Positions 5,890-39,614 of a DNA stretch of 50,975 bases are shown piece after piece. The notes under the pieces were generated by a model. It was not told the DNA's origin and did not search any database. It saw nothing but the letters and a program-made list of their open reading frames with translations. Both the position numbers and the translations under genes were made by a program. Positions within the stretch are counted from its first letter, which is position 1, and the number at the start of each line of letters is the position of its first letter. The stretch comes from a phage: sequence record PZ871100.1, one strand, 5' to 3'.

Positions 5890-6324
5890 ATGAGTGATTA
5901 TTCAGTCATTGTTGGCGCTGAGTCGCCAGGGTGCATGGTCGATTCTTCAATAATGGTGATTAACGGATCTTTCGTGTGCGGAGATGAATTTATTGCGCCA
6001 GGTAAGATTGTGCGACTATCACATATAATAAATGGATACAAAATAGCAAGTGTTAATGGGGATCTCGTTATTGGCGTGGCAGTAAGGCCGCCGGACTCGT
6101 GCATATATGAGGAGGGCGATCCAGTTAATGTGGTTAGTCGGGGTAATGTTTGGTGCTTAACTTCTGAGAGCGAAGCGCCAGAATATGGAGATAAAGTATT
6201 TGTAACGCAAGATGGAGATGTGGCATACAGTGAAGGCGACTTGCTGATTGGTTGGATCTTTACTGGCGAACATGTAAAGGTTGATAATGATTCATATATT
6301 GTCGGGGTAAGCATTGACCCATAA
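5890..6324 (+). CDS. capsid-associated protein, paralog B
   Basis: ORF trimmed to ATG 5890 (GGAG upstream, after terminator hairpin); paralog of 5332..5844. Confidence 0.4.
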   Translation: MSDYSVIVGAESPGCMVDSSIMVINGSFVCGDEFIAPGKIVRLSHIINGYKIASVNGDLVIGVAVRPPDSCIYEEGDPVNVVSRGNVWCLTSESEAPEYGDKVFVTQDGDVAYSEGDLLIGWIFTGEHVKVDNDSYIVGVSIDP

Positions 6325-6407
6325 CACAAAATTATGTTGCACGTTTAACAAAAAATGCTATCATTGGTCCGTTACATACTAACGACCTTTATATATGGAG
6401 GAAGAAA

Positions 6408-29075: not shown

Positions 29076-31121
29076 ATGATTCCAAACATTGAAAAGCAAA
29101 TATCAGCACTTGGCGAAGCGGTAATTAAATCCATTCAGGAGAGATTCACTGTTGGCGATATTGTGCCTTACCCTTACCAGTGCGTTGCATACGCTGAGAT
29201 CGCAAAGCGTATGAAAAATTATGAGCATCCATTCTTTGTTAAAGCGTCCGTATCTGCTGGCAAAACATTGATGTTTGCAATGGTTGCTCACCAGTGCCGG
29301 AAAATGGGCTTGAAAATGATGGTCCTTGCTCGCCAGGCTGAGATTGTAGATCAGGATTCTGAAGAGATAACAAATCTTGGTGTGCCGAACTCCATCTATT
29401 GTGCAGGACTGAAGACAAAAAGCGCATACTTTCCGATCGTTGTTGGTTCTGAGGGAACTGTAGTTAATGGACTGTTTAAAGCGCTTGGCGACTATGTTCC
29501 GCACGTTATCGGGATTGACGAATGTCACCAGGTGGATTGGGAAGACCTTGCCGACGCAATAGAGAAAGACGAATCATTTTTACAAATGACGACGAAGAAA
29601 GGCGAAAAAGTACCAAATCCAGATTATGACATAACAAAGGGAAGCAGGAACAGAAATACAGAGTTCCTGATTGGTGAGGATGGCTTGCCAATAGAGGGAA
29701 CAGGCCGCACACAATACACTGTCATTATCATGGAAATGATGCGCCGCTGCAGGAAAGCATATGGCCATGAACTGCGCATATTTGGCATGACTGGATCGGA
29801 GTTTCGCGGCGTAGTCCCGATCTTGGTAGAAGACAAAAAACAGAAAGGATTCTGGCGTGAACAGGTTACTAATATTGACACCAACTACCTGATCAAATTC
29901 GGTTCTGTTGTGCCAACAAATTTTGGCGACGTTGGCGATCTAGGGTATGACCTTTCAGAGTTTGAGGCATCCAGTGAGGATGGGGTTGCAGACTTTGACG
30001 CTAAAACGCTTCGCAGGATGGAACAAAAAATTCATGAAGAAGCGACCATGACAAAGCGCATCATGGCGAAAGTTCACGAGATCTGTAAAAACCGTAACGG
30101 CGTACTTGTGACATGTGCAGGAGAAAGGCATTGCAAAGAGGCTTCGGCGGCGTTGCCGCCTGGAACGACTTACAGGATCATTACTGGTAAGACTGGCGAT
30201 AACCAGCGCAAGGAGTGGTTGAAAGAAGCATACGAGGGAAAGGTTAAATACATCTTCCAGGTGCAGGCGCTAACTACTGGCGTTAACGTGCCGTTTTGGG
30301 ATACGTCTGTTATTCTGCGTAAGATTGGATCTCTTACGTTGCTGATTCAGCTTTTAGGGCGCGGAATGCGACTACTTAAGAAGTGGCATAAGGAGCAAGG
30401 ATTCCAGAAAGATGATCATCTCGTCATGGATTTTTCAGGAACGATGGACGAGCTGGGTGAGCTTTATTTTGATCCGATACTGGAACAGGCGCAGCACCAG
30501 AAGCGATTCAGAAATGGTAAAGATCCGAAGCCTTGTCCTGTTTGCGGAACTCTTAACAGCTATTATGCTCGTCGTTGTATGCACGTAGACGAAAACGGCA
30601 ACAGATGCGAGTGGTTCTTTAAATTCAGGACATGTGATGATCAGATTGACCCGCGCACTAAAAAGATTATTCATCGCGGTTGCGGAACTAAGAATGATAT
30701 TGCGGCCAGGGTATGCAGACATTGCGACATGTCATTGATTGACCCTAACGAGAAGTTAAGCGGAAAGCACTACACAAAAAACGACTGGTTCCAAGTGCAA
30801 TCTTTCGCGGTTGATATGACGAAAAACCAGAAAGGGATAATATTTAATTATGAGCTTTCCGATGGCATAGATACTTTCAAGGCGAGAGAGATATTTTTCC
30901 CTGAGTCTGAGAGCCAAATTTGCCGCGCAAAATGGCGAAGCGTTGCTCTTAAGCATATACCGGATCGCCGTGTCGCTGGTATGGTGGCGAGCTATCGCAA
31001 TGCGCGTAAAATCATGCAATATGTGAATCACATCATGCCGCCATCGCGTGTGACTCACCGCAAGACTAGCAAGGGCGAAGATAATTTGTACAAGAAGGAA
31101 TTTAATTATGGCAATGACTGA
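29076..31121 (+). CDS. SF2 helicase (DECH box) with C-terminal Cys-rich zinc-finger-like region
   Basis: Walker A-like SAGKTL, DECH motif GIDECHQ, C-terminal CPVCG...C...C clusters; start ambiguous (29052 or 29076). Confidence 0.75.
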   Translation: MIPNIEKQISALGEAVIKSIQERFTVGDIVPYPYQCVAYAEIAKRMKNYEHPFFVKASVSAGKTLMFAMVAHQCRKMGLKMMVLARQAEIVDQDSEEITNLGVPNSIYCAGLKTKSAYFPIVVGSEGTVVNGLFKALGDYVPHVIGIDECHQVDWEDLADAIEKDESFLQMTTKKGEKVPNPDYDITKGSRNRNTEFLIGEDGLPIEGTGRTQYTVIIMEMMRRCRKAYGHELRIFGMTGSEFRGVVPILVEDKKQKGFWREQVTNIDTNYLIKFGSVVPTNFGDVGDLGYDLSEFEASSEDGVADFDAKTLRRMEQKIHEEATMTKRIMAKVHEICKNRNGVLVTCAGERHCKEASAALPPGTTYRIITGKTGDNQRKEWLKEAYEGKVKYIFQVQALTTGVNVPFWDTSVILRKIGSLTLLIQLLGRGMRLLKKWHKEQGFQKDDHLVMDFSGTMDELGELYFDPILEQAQHQKRFRNGKDPKPCPVCGTLNSYYARRCMHVDENGNRCEWFFKFRTCDDQIDPRTKKIIHRGCGTKNDIAARVCRHCDMSLIDPNEKLSGKHYTKNDWFQVQSFAVDMTKNQKGIIFNYELSDGIDTFKAREIFFPESESQICRAKWRSVALKHIPDRRVAGMVASYRNARKIMQYVNHIMPPSRVTHRKTSKGEDNLYKKEFNYGND

Positions 31122-31527
31122 TAAAGGCGATTATCTGGAGTTTTACGAAAGAGATCCGACAGATACGCTAAAAGAGGAATCGCACCAGATCGGGGCGTTT
31201 CAATGGTTGACTTATGCATACCCTGAATTGCTGGCATGGCATACGAAAAACGAGGGCGACAAGGGGATCGCTACAGCAATGATGGATCAGCAAGCTGGGC
31301 TTGTTAAGGGCGTAAGTGATTTTATCATCCTGATTGGATTAAAAGGCCGTTACCCGTTCGCGGCAATTGAGATGAAGCGCGTCAATAAGTCCGGCAAGGG
31401 TAAGGCTTCACCAGTCAGCAAAGAGCAAAAAGCCTTCTTGCGACGTGTGCGTGAGCTTGGCGGATTCGCCGCCGTAACATACGGATATAAGCAATTCATG
31501 ATCGCTGTAGAATACATGATGAAATAG
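31108..31527 (+). CDS. VRR-NUC domain nuclease
   Basis: 139 aa; SDFIIL...AIEMKR...KEQKAF motif arrangement of PD-(D/E)XK VRR-NUC. Confidence 0.65.
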   Translation: MAMTDKGDYLEFYERDPTDTLKEESHQIGAFQWLTYAYPELLAWHTKNEGDKGIATAMMDQQAGLVKGVSDFIILIGLKGRYPFAAIEMKRVNKSGKGKASPVSKEQKAFLRRVRELGGFAAVTYGYKQFMIAVEYMMK

Positions 31528-31601: not shown

Positions 31602-32303
31602 ATGAGCAAAGAAACCGAAGTGACATTTGAACAAATAGAACGCGAAACATTCATTGGCAATGCTCTTGCTACTGGTGGTCATTACCAGGCTGTTAAACCA
31701 AATCAATATTTCAAAGTGACTGGCAACCGCTATAACGGCAGCAATACGCCGGACGTTGTGCGCGATTTGTGGTCTACGCCGTCTGAGGTTGTCACATGGA
31801 TGGAAAGCGAATACGGTGATTATGACATCGACGCGGCTGCAAGCAAAGAAAATTCTGTATGTGAAAAATTCTACAGCAAGGAAACAAATTGCTTAAAGCG
31901 TTGGTGGGGTAGTAACAAGCATATATGGCTGAATCCGCCGTACAGCAATATAACGCCTTTCGTTAAGAAAGCGATTGAGCAAATGGAGCACAATAACCAG
32001 ATCGACATTCTGTTACCTTGCGACACATCTACAGGATGGTTTTATGAGGCACAACAGAAAGCAGCGGAAATTATCTGGATCACTGGCGAAGTTTATCAGG
32101 AGGAAGGAACAGAATATTCCCGCACAGGACGCCTTGCGTTTACCTCGGCTCTTACAGGTAAACCAGTGCAGGGCAACAACAAAGGAAGCGTTATTTTCAT
32201 CATGCGCGAACTTAAAGAAGGTGAGCAGCAGAAAACGCGATACGTTAAAATCAGCGACATTTGCCCTTCGGTGGCAGACCGTCGCGCACGGAAACGGAGC
32301 TAA
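31602..32303 (+). CDS. DNA N6-adenine methyltransferase (phage Dam-like)
   Basis: 233 aa; catalytic NPPYS motif (WLNPPYSN). Confidence 0.7.
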   Translation: MSKETEVTFEQIERETFIGNALATGGHYQAVKPNQYFKVTGNRYNGSNTPDVVRDLWSTPSEVVTWMESEYGDYDIDAAASKENSVCEKFYSKETNCLKRWWGSNKHIWLNPPYSNITPFVKKAIEQMEHNNQIDILLPCDTSTGWFYEAQQKAAEIIWITGEVYQEEGTEYSRTGRLAFTSALTGKPVQGNNKGSVIFIMRELKEGEQQKTRYVKISDICPSVADRRARKRS

Positions 32304-32307
32304 AGCC

Positions 32308-32565
32308 ATGCAAAAAGAAAGAAGCATTTATTTAAATGAAACTGGAAAGTGGTTGTTATTTCGCGCTATGGTATGCGATGCACTTGATAAAAACCCTAAC
32401 GTGAAAAAGATGATTGATTGCGATCCGTGGGAATTTTCAAGCGCATTAGATATGAGCTTTGAGGAGACAAAAAAACTACCGCTTGAAAAATGGAGCGAGC
32501 AAATCAGAAATGACATGCAAGAATTTGTCGATTCGTGGAATTTTCAGCACGGAATGATCCACTAA
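32308..32565 (+). CDS. hypothetical protein
   Basis: 85 aa from ATG 32308; stop TAG embedded in promoter box. Confidence 0.4.
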   Translation: MQKERSIYLNETGKWLLFRAMVCDALDKNPNVKKMIDCDPWEFSSALDMSFEETKKLPLEKWSEQIRNDMQEFVDSWNFQHGMIH

Positions 32566-32608
32566 TAGCACTTTTTGTTAAAACGCCCGACCTTGTGTCG
32601 GGCATAAT
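32565..32608 (+). promoter_or_regulatory. conserved-box promoter-like unit
   Basis: Box 32565-32584, spacer inverted repeat GCCCGAC...GTCGGGC, CATAAT 32603-32608, leader CATCAAAACGA. Confidence 0.6.
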
Positions 32609-32640
32609 TATTTCATCAAAACGAACAAGAGGAAAATAAA

Positions 32641-32820
32641 ATGGTTGTTTACGATCCACGCGCTTTTAAAATTGCTCAAGAAGTTTCACGCGAATCTGTT
32701 GCTGGCGGTTCGGTTAACGGCTATCAGTTTGATTGGTCGGCAGCAATGACCCTGCTTAAGGTTGCATATGGTCACGCGCCAATTGAAACAGCGGAGGAAT
32801 ATTATAAGCATGAAGGTTGA
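32641..32820 (+). CDS. hypothetical small protein (59 aa)
   Basis: Below ORF-track cutoff; ATG 32641 with AGAGGA RBS downstream of promoter unit. Confidence 0.4.
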   Translation: MVVYDPRAFKIAQEVSRESVAGGSVNGYQFDWSAAMTLLKVAYGHAPIETAEEYYKHEG

Positions 32821-33052
32821 ACAAGGTAGGCAGGCCGTATGGGATCACGCAAAGGAATGCGGGATAGCAGAAGACATAGCCAGGATAGCGAAATATTTTG
32901 ATATTGCTGACATAAGCATTATCAGCGGCGACAAAATGACATTTCTCAATGAACGACCGCGCAAGATGCATCGCGTACCAGCAATACCAACAAAGATTGA
33001 TTTCAAAGAGGCTATGGCGAAAATTCGCGAGCCGCGCAAATACTACAAATGA
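32810..33052 (+). CDS. hypothetical protein
   Basis: ATG 32810 with GGAGGA RBS; 80 aa. Confidence 0.4.
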   Translation: MKVEQGRQAVWDHAKECGIAEDIARIAKYFDIADISIISGDKMTFLNERPRKMHRVPAIPTKIDFKEAMAKIREPRKYYK

Positions 33053-33150
33053 GGATTATTATCATGTGGCGTTTGTTACTTTTGCCCTTACCTGTTATGA
33101 TGGCGATCTCTATTGTATATGTTGTCATAATGAGATAAGGAGAATTTTTG

Positions 33151-34266
33151 ATGAAGCAAATCAAAATCACAGATGAACAATTTATCAATGAGCGCAAGCA
33201 GGGAAAGACATATAAGCAGATCGCTAGTGAGTATGGCATGAACGTTCGCAGCATTGAGCGACGCGCGGCACGATTAGCAAAGCAAGGTAAAGTTACAACC
33301 ATCGGATCACCTGGTTTTGGTGTTACTGGAGAATCAAAGCTAATTGATAAAGATGGCAATGTGGTTATGACATGGATTAAGACAAGCAAAGACCGCGAAC
33401 AGTTAGAAGCATTAATGCAGGCCGCTATGGATGCATTTAGCGAAGAGGTTCCTCGACTTGATCCACAGCCAGAATCACAAAAGAATTATAGCGAGACGCT
33501 ATCACTGTATCCGATCTTTGACATGCACTTGGGCGCAATGGCGCATAAGCATGAATGCGGCGAGAATTGGGATACAGCAACAGCAGAGCGCGTAATGAAT
33601 AATTTCATTGATTATTCCATCCAGTGTGCGCCGGATAGTGAAAAAGCTGTTTTGCTGATTGGTGGTGATATGCTTCACAGCGACGGACTGGAAGCGGTGA
33701 CACCTGCAAGCGGTCACGTATTGGATCAAGATAGTAGATATGCAAAACTTGTTTATGTTGCCATCCGGTCAGTGCGTCGAGCAATTACAAAGCTGTTATC
33801 AAAACACAAAAACGTCGAGATTCAGATCATTGAAGGCAACCACGACCAAAGCGGCATGATCTGGTTGCGCGCAGCAATGGCGGCAGCATATGAGAATGAG
33901 CCACGAGTGCATGTTGATGTGTCTCCGCGAGTGGTTCATCACACACAATATGGCAAAACGTTCCTGGCATACCATCACGGGCATACTATCCGCAAACCTG
34001 AAACATTGCTAATGATGTGCGCGGCAGACTGGCGCGAAGACTTCGGCAATTCAAAAATGATGTATGCTCACGTAGGGCACTGGCATCATCAAACAGTAAC
34101 TGAAACAAGCCTGGGAATTGTTGAAGTGCATAGCACTATGGCGGCAAAAGATGCATATGCTGCGCGCGGTGGATGGCGTTCTCGTCGCCGTGCGGCTGTT
34201 ATTGTTTATGATAAAGAATACGGAGAAGTAGGGCGATTTATGCATTATCCAGAAATGGCTGGTTGA
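33151..34266 (+). CDS. HTH domain fused to calcineurin-like metallophosphoesterase
   Basis: N-terminal HTH-like KTYKQIASEYGMNVRSIERRAARL; phosphoesterase motifs DMHLG, GGDMLHSDG, EGNHDQ. Confidence 0.6.
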   Translation: MKQIKITDEQFINERKQGKTYKQIASEYGMNVRSIERRAARLAKQGKVTTIGSPGFGVTGESKLIDKDGNVVMTWIKTSKDREQLEALMQAAMDAFSEEVPRLDPQPESQKNYSETLSLYPIFDMHLGAMAHKHECGENWDTATAERVMNNFIDYSIQCAPDSEKAVLLIGGDMLHSDGLEAVTPASGHVLDQDSRYAKLVYVAIRSVRRAITKLLSKHKNVEIQIIEGNHDQSGMIWLRAAMAAAYENEPRVHVDVSPRVVHHTQYGKTFLAYHHGHTIRKPETLLMMCAADWREDFGNSKMMYAHVGHWHHQTVTETSLGIVEVHSTMAAKDAYAARGGWRSRRRAAVIVYDKEYGEVGRFMHYPEMAG

Positions 34267-34309
34267 ACTTTTAATCATTAAAATATAAATATAAATCATC
34301 AATTTAATT

Positions 34310-34339
34310 GGGCGTGGCATTTTGCTTCGCCCTTTTTTT
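34310..34339 (+). terminator. terminator-like hairpin before lysis cassette
   Basis: GGGCG...CGCCC hairpin then TTTTTTT. Confidence 0.5.
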
Positions 34340-34412
34340 ATTCCTTTTTGTGCGTTCAATGGTTAGGATACAATCAATTAATTGTTGACTTTTATCTACA
34401 GGAGATCTAATC

Positions 34413-34628
34413 ATGAAAGATTTTTTAAACGCTGCAACTTCCGGCACTGGCGGCGCGTCAATCACTGGCGCGGTAACTGGTCAAACAACTATTGCAATAG
34501 CCAGCTTCGTTTTGATGGCTGCATTTGGTATGTGGGGCGCTTATCTTCGCTGGCGTGATAGTAAGGCGCTACGTGACGCGCTTGAATGCGGTGATATTAA
34601 GAAAGCTATTGAGATCAGAGGTAAATAA
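34413..34628 (+). CDS. holin (putative, single TM)
   Basis: 71 aa; one hydrophobic helix; charged C-terminus; directly upstream of endolysin with ATGA overlap. Confidence 0.6.
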
Positions 34629-35116
34629 TGAGTATAAAACAAAGAGTGACAGCTGCGGCTTTTGGCGTTGCTCTTGCCCTTACTTCTCCGCTACTGGAGG
34701 AAATAGAAGGAGTAAAACATAAGCCGTACAAAGATATTGCTGGGATATGGACGGTTTGCGCCGGAATAACTGGACCTGACGTAATACCAGGCAAAACGTA
34801 CACACAGAGAGAGTGCGATGCGCTACTGGCAAAGCATATCAAGATCGCAAAGGATGAAGTTGATAAACGTGTGAAGGTTGAGATTCCTGATACAATGCGC
34901 GCAGCGATGTATTCATTCACATACAATGCTGGCACTGGTGCTTTTAGAAATTCAACCATGCTTAAGCTGATTAATAACGGTCGTTATATGGAAGCGTGCA
35001 ATCAGTTATGGCGATGGACAAAATACACCAATCCAAAAACAGGAAAGAAAGAAACGTCTAAAGGACTGCGCAACCGCCGCGCGGTGGAATTTAAATATTG
35101 CATTAAGGATCTGTAA
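34628..35116 (+). CDS. endolysin (phage lysozyme, GH24-like)
   Basis: 162 aa; [26 protein letters not shown] signature region. Confidence 0.8.
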
Positions 35117-35118
35117 TC

Positions 35119-35517
35119 ATGAGAAAGTTATCAGCAATCGCGATCGCTGTTATTTTGTCTGGATGTTCAAGCGTTACGCCACTGACCGGATTAATCGGTA
35201 GTAAGCCGGAAATCACAGCACAGGCAGGAGCGGAGAACGTAAAGCAGACCGTTGGCGTTACCGCAAAGCAGGACACCAGCACGAAACAGGAAACTACAAT
35301 AAAGGAATCTGCGGTTGATAAGGTGGACACTTCCAGCAAGAAGGATTTCACTACGTCAACCATTCAGGCAAACACCATCAAGGCTGATAAAATCCAGGTT
35401 GTGCAGGGTGAGCAAAGGAAGTGGTACGATCCTATAATCTATTGCGCTGCAATTTTCAGTGGTCTTTTGACTATGCTTTACTTTTCCTACCGCAAAGATA
35501 ACAAAAAGGAGGCTTAA
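35119..35517 (+). CDS. unimolecular spanin (T1 gp11-like)
   Basis: 132 aa; N-terminal lipobox ILSGC and C-terminal TM helix; last gene of lysis cassette. Confidence 0.7.
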   Translation: MRKLSAIAIAVILSGCSSVTPLTGLIGSKPEITAQAGAENVKQTVGVTAKQDTSTKQETTIKESAVDKVDTSSKKDFTTSTIQANTIKADKIQVVQGEQRKWYDPIIYCAAIFSGLLTMLYFSYRKDNKKEA

Positions 35518-35533
35518 CGCCTCCTTTATTTTT
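35508..35533. terminator. terminator at end of lysis cassette (convergent junction)
   Basis: GGAGGC ttaac GCCTCC then TTTATTTTTAT; spanin stop codon in loop. Confidence 0.55.
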
Positions 35534-35750
35534 ATGCATCGGGCCATTCGTGGGAATGGTTTGTTAATTGTTGGTTTTCTTGAAACTCAATATCGTAATT
35601 ACCAGCCATCACGCGCATTGCCATGTTTTCAACATATTCTACAGCTTGCTCACGAGTCAATGAGTCGGCTGGGAACTTTGTAGGAATTTCAGTAGTAGTT
35701 CCGTTTTCATGCTTGACAACCAGCGCCACGGTGAAAAATTTGTTGCTCAT
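35532..35750 (-). CDS. hypothetical protein
   Basis: 72 aa; preceded by promoter unit and conserved leader. Confidence 0.45.
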   Translation of the reverse strand: MSNKFFTVALVVKHENGTTTEIPTKFPADSLTREQAVEYVENMAMRVMAGNYDIEFQENQQLTNHSHEWPDA

Positions 35751-35786
35751 GGTAACTTCCTTTTGTTGTTTCGTTTCGATGAAACA

Positions 35787-35830
35787 AATATACCCGATAC
35801 GAGATCGGGAGTTTTAACAAAAAGTGCTAT
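35787..35830 (-). promoter_or_regulatory. conserved-box promoter-like unit
   Basis: Minus-strand box (plus 35811-35830), spacer inverted repeat CCCGAT...ATCGGG, TATATT (plus 35787-35792), leader CATCGAAACGA. Confidence 0.6.
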
Positions 35831-35947
35831 TCAATACGCTTTACAGTAACCAACAAAACGCCGTCCTCATCACACAAATTATGCTCTGATATATCAAGCG
35901 CTCGCATGTCAGAATGAATGAGCGTTAACATTGCGTGCATGAAGTCG

Positions 35948-36340
35948 TCATGTGAGATTGAACTTACGGCGCAGAACTTCAATATTTTGTCTATTAGCAT
36001 TTGACGTAAACAATTCTTCATCGCTCATTTCTCCGATCCTTAAAACATCCCTTACCCATTCGTTTTGCATACCTTCCAGACTGTAAAGTTCAAACGAGAA
36101 AGGTCGATTTGCAGACCCTTTCTTACACCAGAACTTTCCACCAACTCCATCAAGATAACCAGCGGTCATCATTCTTGCGCAAAACTCTTTTGAAACGGCG
36201 GTTGCAAACATTCTCGGCGTAAATCCTGCGGCCCTTGCGAGCCGCTCACATTCTCTATGCTGAAATATAAATTTTGCGATATGTTGACGTGTAAACCATT
36301 CGAATGACTCACACCAGCGATACAGATCCAGAAGAAACAT
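35948..36340 (-). CDS. hypothetical protein
   Basis: 130 aa; start 2 nt after the upstream stop. Confidence 0.45.
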   Translation of the reverse strand: MFLLDLYRWCESFEWFTRQHIAKFIFQHRECERLARAAGFTPRMFATAVSKEFCARMMTAGYLDGVGGKFWCKKGSANRPFSFELYSLEGMQNEWVRDVLRIGEMSDEELFTSNANRQNIEVLRRKFNLT

Positions 36341-36342
36341 AA

Positions 36343-37926
36343 TTACCCCAGCAATGTTGGATTTACGAAAACAACGCCATTAATCACACAAATATAATTT
36401 CTTTCTTCAAGCATCGGCAGCAGTTGCGTTTCCATACGCTTCATTACGCCAGCCTGACCAACAAACGGCTTAACTTTTCGTGCAGCCTCATATATGGCGC
36501 GAACATTCAAGATTCCCTTGTTAGCCTTACCGTGTCGAGTGATAATCTCGATTAGTTTACCCATTTCAGCATCATCACCAGCATAGCCAGAAGCGTTGGC
36601 GGCGCTAATGTATGTTTTGCTCAACTCGCTAAACATCAGCAGTGCTTCCTGAACGGTTTCAACCTCAATCTCTTTCGACTTTTGAGGGTATCCGCCAGGA
36701 TTAAACCAATTGCGGATAGTGTGCAAAACCGAAGCAATCCTGATCACCTGCTTATCCATTTTGCCAAGCGCACCGCGCAGCATTGTATGCGAATACTTTC
36801 CGCCATCGGCAAGGTGCGGTTCCATCTCCTGACGAGCCATGTTAAGAACTCGCATTGCGGATTTGCTGATCTTAAGCTGGATGTTTGATTCACTCATGAT
36901 GTTATGGATCAGCTTGAAATATTGGCTTTTCAGTTCTCCATCAACAGGTTCATAAGTAGAATCACCGTTATCATCAACAAACTTTCTACGGCCTAAAAAT
37001 GATTCCTCACGCACAAGCAAATAACGCTCACTTACACCGATACCGCGAGATCCTGCATCCATGATGGCATTGATTGTTTCATCCTGGGCAATTACCGCCA
37101 TACAGCCAAGAGCTTTAAAACTCATATTGTTGTCAGCGTTTGCACGAGCTATAGAAACATGACCATGATCCCATGCTTTTAGCACAAGTTCGCTGTTGGT
37201 TTTACGTTCGCTATTGGCATATGTCAGACCTAAAAGGCTGTTAATACTTGTTGCCTCGTCTGAAATCACAGCAAAGTTACCCTGGCGATTGTTGATTCTT
37301 GCAAGTCCTTCCGGCGTTGTGTCGGACACAGGGAAAACGATGTCACACATCTTTTCCAGTTTTTCTTCCAGATCTTCTTTCTCCTGGTACAGGGATTCCA
37401 TATCAGCGCCGGAGCGCTCGCTTTTCATCTCTTTTGCAAGACCTGCCAACTTTGCCTGAATCTTTTTTCTTTCCTTCTTTCTCTGATCGTTAATTCTTTC
37501 CACTTCTGCAACCATTGGAGCAAGTGCCAGGCTGTTAACGGCAGATTTACCAGTTGAAGGAGGCTGGCTTGTGACAACATAAAGAGCGGTCGGCTGATCC
37601 GTTCCGTGATACTCAACAGTGAAGCGTCCAAGCATTGCAGCAGACACACATCCGATAAAATGCATATATGCCGATGATTCAGGAAATTGAACAGATCGAG
37701 CAATATTGCGCGCCAGCTTACCAACAATATCAACATCATTGCCGAGAGAAATTACAGGGTAGCGATCGTTTCCGTTATTAACATCATTAACCTCACCCCA
37801 AAAGCTGGACGATTGACGGTATCCGTTTGCCTGAATGGACACGCGCACAGGAGACAATCCTTGTGCATCAGCTAATTCGATAATTTGTTTTGGTGTTAGT
37901 TTATTGGTTTCAAACGAAAAATTCAT
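36343..37926 (-). CDS. P-loop NTPase, replication-associated (DUF3987-like, putative)
   Basis: ATG 37926 with AAGGAG RBS; Walker A-like PPSTGKS; acidic coiled region; own promoter unit. Confidence 0.4.
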   Translation of the reverse strand: MNFSFETNKLTPKQIIELADAQGLSPVRVSIQANGYRQSSSFWGEVNDVNNGNDRYPVISLGNDVDIVGKLARNIARSVQFPESSAYMHFIGCVSAAMLGRFTVEYHGTDQPTALYVVTSQPPSTGKSAVNSLALAPMVAEVERINDQRKKERKKIQAKLAGLAKEMKSERSGADMESLYQEKEDLEEKLEKMCDIVFPVSDTTPEGLARINNRQGNFAVISDEATSINSLLGLTYANSERKTNSELVLKAWDHGHVSIARANADNNMSFKALGCMAVIAQDETINAIMDAGSRGIGVSERYLLVREESFLGRRKFVDDNGDSTYEPVDGELKSQYFKLIHNIMSESNIQLKISKSAMRVLNMARQEMEPHLADGGKYSHTMLRGALGKMDKQVIRIASVLHTIRNWFNPGGYPQKSKEIEVETVQEALLMFSELSKTYISAANASGYAGDDAEMGKLIEIITRHGKANKGILNVRAIYEAARKVKPFVGQAGVMKRMETQLLPMLEERNYICVINGVVFVNPTLLG

Positions 37927-37953
37927 TGGTGATAACTCCTTTTTGATGCGGCA

Positions 37954-37997
37954 ATAATACCGCACCAATGCTACCCGCATTTAACAAAAAATGCTAT
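37954..37997 (-). promoter_or_regulatory. conserved-box promoter-like unit upstream of P-loop NTPase gene
   Basis: Minus-strand ATAGCATTTTTTGTTAAAT, 18 nt, TATTAT (plus 37954-37959). Confidence 0.55.
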
Positions 37998-38215
37998 TTG
38001 ATCCGCTCTATGCTAACTAAGATTTTTTCTGGTTCCTTTGCACTATGGCAATGCGCGGTTACAGAATCAACAAAATCAAAGTAAAGTGATTTGTGATATG
38101 AGAATCCAATCAGCCACCCAACCATCGTTTTCTTTATTGGCCTGACTATATCGCCAGGCTTAAAGGTTTTTGTTGCCGAATGAGTCACCTTATAGCGATG
38201 TTCAGCCTTGATCAC
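37994..38215 (-). CDS. hypothetical protein (GTG start)
   Basis: GTGA overlap with upstream stop. Confidence 0.3.
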   Translation of the reverse strand: MIKAEHRYKVTHSATKTFKPGDIVRPIKKTMVGWLIGFSYHKSLYFDFVDSVTAHCHSAKEPEKILVSIERIK

Positions 38216-38598
38216 TTATACATAGCCTCAAACAAATGACAGCCACCAGCGGAAAATCCAACTTCTTCGCGGTACAGCGTCCAGCGGTCGCCAGCTTCAT
38301 CAAACACATAACCAGCAACAGCGCCAAGCGCGCGGCCTTGCTCAATCTGGTAGCGCTTTCCTTCTTTGAAATGCTTTTTGCAAGGGATCTTGTGATCTAC
38401 AAAGGTGCATTTAATTGTTTTTGTCTTGATATGACGATAGTCAGACTCAACCGCGTTTTGCCACTTGCTACCATTTGTAATGCTCTTTACCTGGAATTGT
38501 TCCAACTCGATCACATCATCGCTACCAGCAATTTTTTCGTATACGGTTTTATAGCGCCCGTTCATCAAAACGTTGGTTTTATTGCAGATAACTTTCAT
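38212..38598 (-). CDS. hypothetical protein
   Basis: 128 aa; AAGGAG RBS; promoter unit upstream. Confidence 0.45.
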   Translation of the reverse strand: MKVICNKTNVLMNGRYKTVYEKIAGSDDVIELEQFQVKSITNGSKWQNAVESDYRHIKTKTIKCTFVDHKIPCKKHFKEGKRYQIEQGRALGAVAGYVFDEAGDRWTLYREEVGFSAGGCHLFEAMYK

Positions 38599-38629
38599 CG
38601 TTTATTTCTCCTTTCGTTTCGGTGAAATG

Positions 38630-38673
38630 ATTATGCCAGGCTTTTACACCTGGCTTTTAACAAAAAGTGCTAT
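38630..38673 (-). promoter_or_regulatory. conserved-box promoter-like unit
   Basis: Minus-strand box (plus 38654-38673), spacer inverted repeat GCCAGG...CCTGGC, CATAAT (plus 38630-38635), leader CACCGAAACGA; methyltransferase-like stop TAG in box. Confidence 0.6.
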
Positions 38674-39380
38674 TTTGCGTTTGCTTCAAAGACGGCGCGA
38701 GCAAAGCCGCGCGGAGTGAGGGAGCGGATCATCTTTGTGCGCGATGATTTTCCGCCAGTTTTGGCCCAACCAGGATTATCCTTGTCACCCTCTTTCGGAA
38801 GGATTGTTGAGCGCGGAGGAATAACAAATCCGTTTCCAGTCCAAAGGCATGTTTTCTTAAAGTACCGATCCCGCGCCGGAATAATATCAGGGAAGTCGGG
38901 ATGCTTATCATCTTCCTGCAGATAGCCAGCATAATCGCACGGATGGAACGTATAATCAGGCTTACGCCATAACGTTGACAGCTTGCCTACAGGATTTTCG
39001 ATCATGTAAGGAACGCCGAAATAATCAGCGATATGCGCCGCGATTCTGCAAGTGTCGGCGGCCTCATCCTGGAAAGAGGGATTCTCAAGGCGTTTTTTGG
39101 ACCAATGGCGAGATCCGCTATTTGCAAGGTCAGTGCACGGCGGAAATGCCATAATGAAATCAGGCTTGCCCCAATTTTCAAGTTTTGCGGTATATTTGAA
39201 TAGCTCATCAATCCACACATTAACGTAAAAAATATTATCATGGATTATGCGCACTGATTGGTAATCTCCATGATCTGCATCATCGTAATTAAAGCAAATG
39301 CATTTATATCCAGCATCAGCCCAATCTTTAACGGCTTTACCAGATCCATCAAACAAAGAGAATATTAAACCTTTATACAT
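38670..39380 (-). CDS. DNA C5-cytosine methyltransferase-like protein (putative)
   Basis: Motif I-like FSLFDGSG, motif IV-like FPPCTD, motif VI-like MIENPVG; stop TAG inside promoter box. Confidence 0.5.
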   Translation of the reverse strand: MYKGLIFSLFDGSGKAVKDWADAGYKCICFNYDDADHGDYQSVRIIHDNIFYVNVWIDELFKYTAKLENWGKPDFIMAFPPCTDLANSGSRHWSKKRLENPSFQDEAADTCRIAAHIADYFGVPYMIENPVGKLSTLWRKPDYTFHPCDYAGYLQEDDKHPDFPDIIPARDRYFKKTCLWTGNGFVIPPRSTILPKEGDKDNPGWAKTGGKSSRTKMIRSLTPRGFARAVFEANAK

Positions 39381-39389
39381 TTCATCACC

Positions 39390-39614
39390 TCAAAACGGAA
39401 AGCATCTAGGGCAGTTCGGATCAAAATTGCAACCACAATCATTAACAATCATGGTTGGATCTGCAAATGCAGCGCCGCATTCATGGTCCATATCCATTTC
39501 ACCCAACGCATCATCAAGCGTCCTGATTTTATATGCGACCTCAAGCGCGGCCTCTTTATTCAGTCCGGCATCTTCTGCTTTTTGCAGTCGCTCAAAAAAA
39601 CCGTCTTGACTCAT
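39390..39614 (-). CDS. hypothetical Cys-rich protein
   Basis: 74 aa; C-terminal DHECG...DCGCNFDPNCPRC; 9 nt upstream of methyltransferase-like gene. Confidence 0.4.
   Translation of the reverse strand: MSQDGFFERLQKAEDAGLNKEAALEVAYKIRTLDDALGEMDMDHECGAAFADPTMIVNDCGCNFDPNCPRCFPF

Follow-up and report, generated by a model that had tools for sequence, protein, structure and literature searches.

The two genes that are the subject of this work, a dam gene and a dcm-like gene on opposite strands of a phage DNA of 50,975 nucleotides (sequence record PZ871100.1; the whole of this stretch, as analysed here, is referred to as the window), are both already known: they are annotated in close relatives of the phage, and the Dam of phage T1, as well as an orthologue of the Dcm-like protein, have been tested experimentally. 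T1 Dam methylates GATC, as was established by DpnI/MboI digestion with phage grown on a dam- host (2023 mBio, PMC10470545); upon deletion of T1 dam, the methylation is gone and the burst size is down to ~60%, and T1 DNA is only partly methylated by the host Dam (PMC10470545).

The Dcm orthologue comes from phage K42, i.e. strain Hzau42 of KarlJaspers (Drexlerviridae, Tempevirinae, Hanrivervirus), whose genome is 95.4% identical to that of KarlJaspers Bas06 (bioRxiv 10.1101/2023.08.16.553469; the preprint has since been cited under Wang et al., Cell Rep 2024;43:114857). In that study, the K42 escapers of retron Ec86 had lesions, in four cases out of four, either within dcm, a gene of 711 bp, or 9 bp upstream, the upstream point mutation being reported as 'dC-to-dA'; expression of K42 dcm was toxic only in cells that carry the retron; and mass spectrometry coupled to liquid chromatography (LC-MS) against a synthetic 5-methylcytosine (5mC) standard detected 5mC on the multicopy single-stranded DNA (msDNA) of the retron with the wild-type K42 Dcm and none with its C82A/E128A/K175A/K176A mutant, where C82 had been chosen as the catalytic residue (bioRxiv 10.1101/2023.08.16.553469).

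In the window, the two open reading frames (ORFs) that the original prediction had placed on opposite strands are present exactly at the positions that it gave (Table 1). What our own analysis shows is the presence of the genes, the assignment of family and fold, the conservation of motifs and the orthology to tested proteins, while the formation of N6-methyladenine (m6A) at GATC by T1 Dam, and the formation of 5mC and the triggering of the retron by K42 Dcm, are taken from the papers on the relatives. We consider it very likely that this T1-family phage carries two orphan methyltransferases dependent on S-adenosylmethionine (SAM), a Dam that acts on GATC and a minimal C5 enzyme, Dcm; the interpretation as two methyltransferases is supported, while the anti-restriction purpose that had been attached to them is one that we infer. 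The source phage can be classed, by its nucleotide sequence, as a Hanrivervirus-like, T1-like member of the Drexlerviridae: the 9 kb between positions 31000 and 40000 are 98.2% identical to Escherichia phage EC147, and 96-97% identical to KarlJaspers (96.7% for Bas06), phiE31-2 and Shigella phage pSf-1.

Table 1. Positions of the two methyltransferase genes and of associated features in the window.
Feature	Position	Strand	Evidence
dam, phage-type N6-adenine DNA methyltransferase; 233 amino acids (aa), ATG start	31602..32303	+	PF05869, TIGR01712, phrog_111
dcm, predicted minimal C5-cytosine DNA methyltransferase; 236 aa, ATG start, 711 bp	38670..39380	-	Motifs, homologues, predicted fold
Good Shine-Dalgarno sequence of dcm, GAGGTGA	39385..39391	-	Read from the upstream sequence; 5 nt before the ATG
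VRR-NUC nuclease-like gene that immediately precedes dam	31108..31527	+	PF08774, E=1.3e-9
DUF3987 helicase gene, in the leftward block of dcm	36343..37980	-	PF13148, E=1.9e-43; phrog_2373, E=1.9e-245
Bidirectional terminator-like hairpin between the rightward and leftward blocks	35505..35527	.	Terminator scan, pattern match only

The Dam-like gene and its counterpart in T1

The rightward gene can clearly be assigned as a phage Dam of the T1/HP1 type, and the assignment is an ordinary one: the protein scores above the cut-offs of both PF05869 (E=1e-60, 204.7 bits; cut-off 28.1) and the NCBIfam equivalog TIGR01712, 'phage N-6-adenine-methyltransferase' (E=9.6e-54, 181.4 bits; cut-off 97.05), matches PHROG 111 with E=6e-82, and shares 97% identity with the KarlJaspers protein that is annotated as 'Dam-like N6-adenine methyltransferase'. 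The NPPYS motif, from which an N6-adenine methyltransferase had been correctly predicted, is located at aa 111-115 (31932-31946), with NPPY at aa 111-114, and is preceded by an acidic/Ala-rich, SAM-binding motif, DIDAAAS, at aa 75-81. A search of the Dam sequence against the Protein Data Bank (PDB) returned no solved relative, but only chance matches to toxins.

The Dam of T1 (ST20, YP_003925.1; M.EcoT1Dam type) is 66% identical to the window protein over 218 aa and shares with it the DxDAAAS motif (there DLDAAAS) and NPPY; about one residue in three is different, and the first 15 aa at the N-terminus remain unaligned. The position of the gene is also the same, after a helicase and a VRR-NUC-like gene, the three corresponding to the order ST22-ST21-ST20 in T1; a small ORF and an exonuclease come next. 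By analogy with the 66% identical T1 enzyme, the window Dam most likely makes m6A at GATC.

The small ORF directly downstream of dam (32305-32565, + strand) is conserved in KarlJaspers (2309-2569 of the compared stretch); its T1 counterpart, ST19, overlaps with the stop codon of dam. A terminator-like hairpin follows the small ORF at 32585-32603, as in T1, and the small ORF may be co-transcribed with dam.

The small C5-cytosine methyltransferase

The leftward gene encodes a protein in which motif I (F-x-G-x-G, SAM binding) occurs as FDGSG at aa 10-14 (39339-39353), motif IV (P-C) as PPC at aa 80-82 (39135-39143), where the cysteine is C82, and motif VI as E128-N129-P130-V131 (38988-38999). The F-x-G-x-G and PC motifs of the original prediction are borne out, while its literal ENV is absent: the protein has the variant ENPV, in which it differs from the known C5-methyltransferases. 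In motif VI, E-N-V, it is the glutamate that protonates N3 of the cytosine. The ordered pattern FxGxG..PC..EN(x)V occurs in none of 20000 composition-preserving shuffles of the protein.

The conservation of these motifs has been followed in an alignment of 22 diverse homologues, down to 55% identity, where G12, S13, G14, P81, C82, E128, N129, P130 and V131 are invariant in all 22 and F10 and D11 are conserved in at least 90%. Also invariant is a C-terminal block, R219-S-L-T-P-R-G225 (aa 219-225), that is similar to motif IX, R-LTPRE, in the Dcm of E. coli; for motif VIII, no RxR is discernible by eye, and the invariant W138-R139 and K175/K176 are the candidates. All four residues that were mutated in the K42 enzyme, C82, E128, K175 and K176, are present in the window protein, at invariant or near-invariant columns of the alignment.

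The closest annotated relative, bas06_0055 of KarlJaspers (QXV82308.1, 'Dcm-like C5 cytosine methyltransferase'), has the same length and is 97% identical, with six substitutions, none of which falls in the conserved motifs, and with the same neighbour genes. The dcm genes of K42 and of the window are equally long, and the identity between the K42 and Bas06 genomes suggests that the window protein would be nearly identical to the one that was tested. Upstream of the gene, the + strand base at 39389, position -9 of dcm, is a C that lies within the complement of GAGGTGA; it matches the escaper mutation in both position and base, and escape may thus have occurred by weaker translation initiation.

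Direct assignment of the protein to a family fails, which counts against its placement among the C5-methyltransferases: there is no Pfam match at E<=0.1 and no NCBIfam match, and the score against PF00145, 10.8 bits (E=0.32), is below the gathering score of 22. For this reason, matches at the level of the homologues and the structure are needed to place it. PF00145 is matched by 13 of the 22 homologues at E<=1 (best 1.3e-6), and PHROG 757, 'DNA methyltransferase', is matched by the protein itself with E=1.5e-85. Against the PDB, matches to DNMT3B are obtained that are sub-significant both for the sequence (E=0.97) and for the family profile (E=0.2, spanning motifs I to IV); in the DNMT3B alignment, FDGSG pairs with the LFDG motif and P81-C82 with PC, so that these matches are consistent with a C5 assignment, although insufficient alone. 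The predicted structure, which is a confident model, is closest to DNMT3A/B, M.HhaI and M.HaeIII, and its top matches are C5-methyltransferases by two methods. With the invariant motifs, the predicted fold and the identity to the KarlJaspers protein, the C5-methyltransferase call, which had been put forward only tentatively, is confirmed, and we describe the protein as a C5-cytosine DNA methyltransferase with a predicted DNMT3-like fold.

At the sequence level, the family may be described as a divergent outlier of the C5-methyltransferase class: identity to DNMT3A/DNMT3B and to M.HhaI/M.HaeIII (PF00145) is only 13-18%, and the compact bacterial C5 enzymes, at 320-333 aa, exceed the protein in length by ~90 aa. 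E. coli K-12 Dcm (b1961, 472 aa, CCWGG) belongs to the same enzyme class and possibly has the same target, but it is twice as long, and local likeness is confined to two places, near the PC motif and near the R-LTPR block. We rejected orthology of the two proteins, with BLASTP E=1.6 and an hhalign probability of 1.2% against the MG1655 protein; no vsr partner is seen among the ORFs that adjoin dcm. We therefore use 'Dcm-like' as a functional label, not as a claim of orthology.

A database search has returned 3305 homologues, nearly all of 225-260 aa, and the family is found by tblastn in 1504 of 50,697 phage records. In T1 (NC_005833), the tblastn search for a Dcm homologue gave none (best match E=0.022 over 42 aa); since T1 has dam and lacks dcm, and since the family is widely spread in phages, dcm behaves as a mobile accessory gene. 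Carriers of the family include rV5-like, 9NA-like and Klebsiella T1-like phages.

The target of Dcm and the site statistics of the genome

The target of Dcm is presumably CCWGG, by analogy, and the preprint on K42 has reported that the defence against the phage was lost when AATGG, ACTGG or CATGG replaced CCTGG in the msDNA hairpin (bioRxiv 10.1101/2023.08.16.553469). Other observations speak against this target: the preprint takes CCWGG by analogy, with the msDNA site mutants in dcm+ MG1655 as the only backing, and msDNA 5mC in dcm+ MG1655 is low without the phage enzyme (bioRxiv 10.1101/2023.08.16.553469); moreover, the window protein has no detectable similarity to E. coli Dcm, and the CCWGG specificity is therefore not transferable by homology.

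The best surviving alternative, although an unlikely one, is that Dcm is a genuine C5-methyltransferase whose target is not simply the host-like CCWGG, so that it adds a pattern not provided by the host: its motif could be relaxed or shorter, CCWGG could be methylated at both of its cytosines, or hairpin or single-stranded DNA could be favoured. The lack of sequence similarity extends to the target-recognition domain of E. coli Dcm, and the nearest structures, DNMT3A/B, are those with the shortest recognition regions, their target being 2 bp long, both of which would suit such an enzyme; against it stand the loss of defence in the CCTGG hairpin mutants, the lack of CCWGG avoidance in the genome (see below) and the name Dcm that several databases give to relatives, by annotation only. 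On msDNA, the phage enzyme also acts differently from the CCWGG enzyme of the host, because the msDNA of dcm+ MG1655 was low in 5mC before expression of the phage enzyme, and our literature search for methylomes of T1-like phages or of the Dcm family found nothing specific, in particular no methylome of a phage that carries the family; both points leave room for a target other than CCWGG.

The more specific claim, that this 236-aa family has its own specificity (shorter, relaxed or hairpin-preferring) and does not copy the CCWGG of the host, appears to us doubtful, and slightly more so than the general one. If true, it would explain the triggering of retron Ec86 in a dcm+ host, where the host Dcm fails to trigger it, and it could add to the broad restriction resistance that has been reported for hanriverviruses; Dcm would also be among the smallest natural C5 DNA methyltransferases, possibly dimeric like DNMT3. 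The true target sequence of this family of very small C5-methyltransferases is where the remaining scientific interest lies.

With respect to CCWGG, the presumed target, and to GATC, the window holds 269 GATC sites against 185 expected from dinucleotide shuffles, and 114 CCWGG sites against 48. Both are at their Markov expectation, with observed/expected (O/E) ratios of 0.98, 1.06 and 0.93, i.e. they are not avoided, which fits with the sites being harmless to the phage through methylation. As a means of finding the Dcm target, the site statistics were rejected, since they do not discriminate: T1, which is without dcm, keeps CCWGG too (83 sites against 53 from shuffles; O/E of 0.63 for CCAGG and 0.98 for CCTGG).

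Palindromes of 6 bp are strongly avoided in the genome: the 52 of them that have a Markov expectation of at least 3 show a median O/E of 0.80 and a mean of 0.67, against 1.00 and 1.01 for 3627 non-palindromic 6-mers, and 20 of the 52 are at an O/E of 0.5 or less. Among the sites found/expected are AAGCTT (0/15.6), AGGCCT (0/10.6), CCGCGG (0/9.6), GGCGCC (1/19.5), TCCGGA (1/19.2), GAATTC (1/15.6), GGATCC (1/12.1) and GATATC (1/10.3). The palindromes that T1 avoids are partly different, GATATC (19/20.1) and ATCGAT (19/23.5) not being avoided there. In the literature, the resistance of pSf-1 to at least six restriction enzymes has been put down to methylation; missing sites are an alternative explanation.

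Genome layout, proposed role and defence

The window looks like a complete phage genome of ~51 kb that has been rotated to begin at a gene, because no tRNA genes have been found in the whole window and because an ATG-initiated ORF starts at base 1 (1-522 region), followed by a 522-aa ORF; judged by the gene order of T1, the gene at base 1 is probably the small terminase. The genes dam and dcm are located in two convergent blocks, one in each: the rightward block contains a helicase, the VRR-NUC gene, dam, an exonuclease and the lysis genes, the leftward block contains dcm and a helicase, and both blocks also carry replication, recombination and helicase genes. The hairpin between the blocks has a 9-bp stem on both strands, then T-runs on both strands, and is located between the end of the spanin gene (+ strand, 35517) and the end of the last leftward gene (- strand, 35532); it is likely a bidirectional terminator at the point where the blocks converge.

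In the leftward block, a 130-aa ORF at 35948-36340 (- strand) matches PHROG 2794 over its full length (E=3e-59) and is unannotated in KarlJaspers Bas06, where a gap is left at 6021-6343 of the compared stretch; in T1, the helicase is followed by ST10, an ORF of similar size. The 130-aa ORF overlaps by 74 nt a 64-aa ORF (35827-36021), which is annotated in KarlJaspers Bas06.

In the mechanism that we propose, the two methyltransferases would be orphans, with no paired nuclease, and would be expressed early, as suggested by gene order only. Dam would methylate the adenine of GATC on replicating phage DNA, with which the host Dam only partly keeps up, so that the progeny DNA would be fully methylated, methylation-sensitive nucleases that cut at GATC would be blocked and a normal burst size would be supported. 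In Dcm, C82 would be the nucleophile and the flipped cytosine would receive its proton from E128; the target-recognition region, at about aa 140-212, is predicted to be very short, like that of the DNMT3 enzymes. The product would be 5mC in DNA that is double-stranded, the site presumably being CCWGG, and protection from EcoRII-type enzymes would follow. As a side effect, Dcm would methylate the hairpin of the msDNA of retron Ec86 (Retron-Eco1), and the abortive-infection system would be switched on.

By analogy with the relatives, we infer that the same activities are exerted in this phage, with CCWGG as the specificity of Dcm and an anti-restriction benefit. Several points run counter to such a role. 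Both GATC and CCWGG are methylated anyway in E. coli K-12 hosts, and the added benefit is therefore not obvious; T1 manages without Dcm; and the experimental support comes from relatives, not from this exact phage. In the BASEL study, furthermore, the Drexlerviridae were found to differ in the adenine and cytosine methyltransferases that they encode, with no pattern that would tie methyltransferase content to restriction resistance.

It is very improbable that Dcm has the fold of a C5-methyltransferase but transfers another group, e.g. carboxymethyl from carboxy-SAM (Cx-SAM), or acts on RNA/tRNA like DNMT2: the idea was raised only by a structural similarity to a Cx-SAM enzyme, while the best structural matches are DNA enzymes, and the C5-methylcytosine that LC-MS found on msDNA was seen with the K42 orthologue and not with the catalytic mutant. 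Least probable of all, and rejected for either ORF on motif conservation and on the published escaper genetics, is that at least one of the two genes is an inactive remnant or, in the manner of the catalytically dead DNMT3L, a regulatory paralogue, in a phage that relies on the host Dam and Dcm: the supply of both patterns by K-12 hosts, the failure of methyltransferase content to predict restriction resistance and the absence of dcm in T1 would agree with it, but the catalytic and cofactor motifs are all intact and do not vary in homologues with as little as 55% identity, neither ORF is truncated and each shares 97% identity with relatives, the 1504 phage records with the Dcm family and the reduced burst size upon deletion of T1 dam speak against it, and escape from retron Ec86 selects for the loss of dcm, which shows that a near-identical phage expresses the gene in active form.

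As a pair of orphan enzymes, the methyltransferases illustrate a trade-off that has already been described: such enzymes can blunt restriction and support replication, while the same methylation activities are sensed by second-line defences, the Dcm orthologue being the published trigger of retron Ec86. The prediction that follows is that hosts with Retron-Eco1 (Ec86), such as E. coli B/BL21, would block this phage, and that the phage would escape by loss of dcm.

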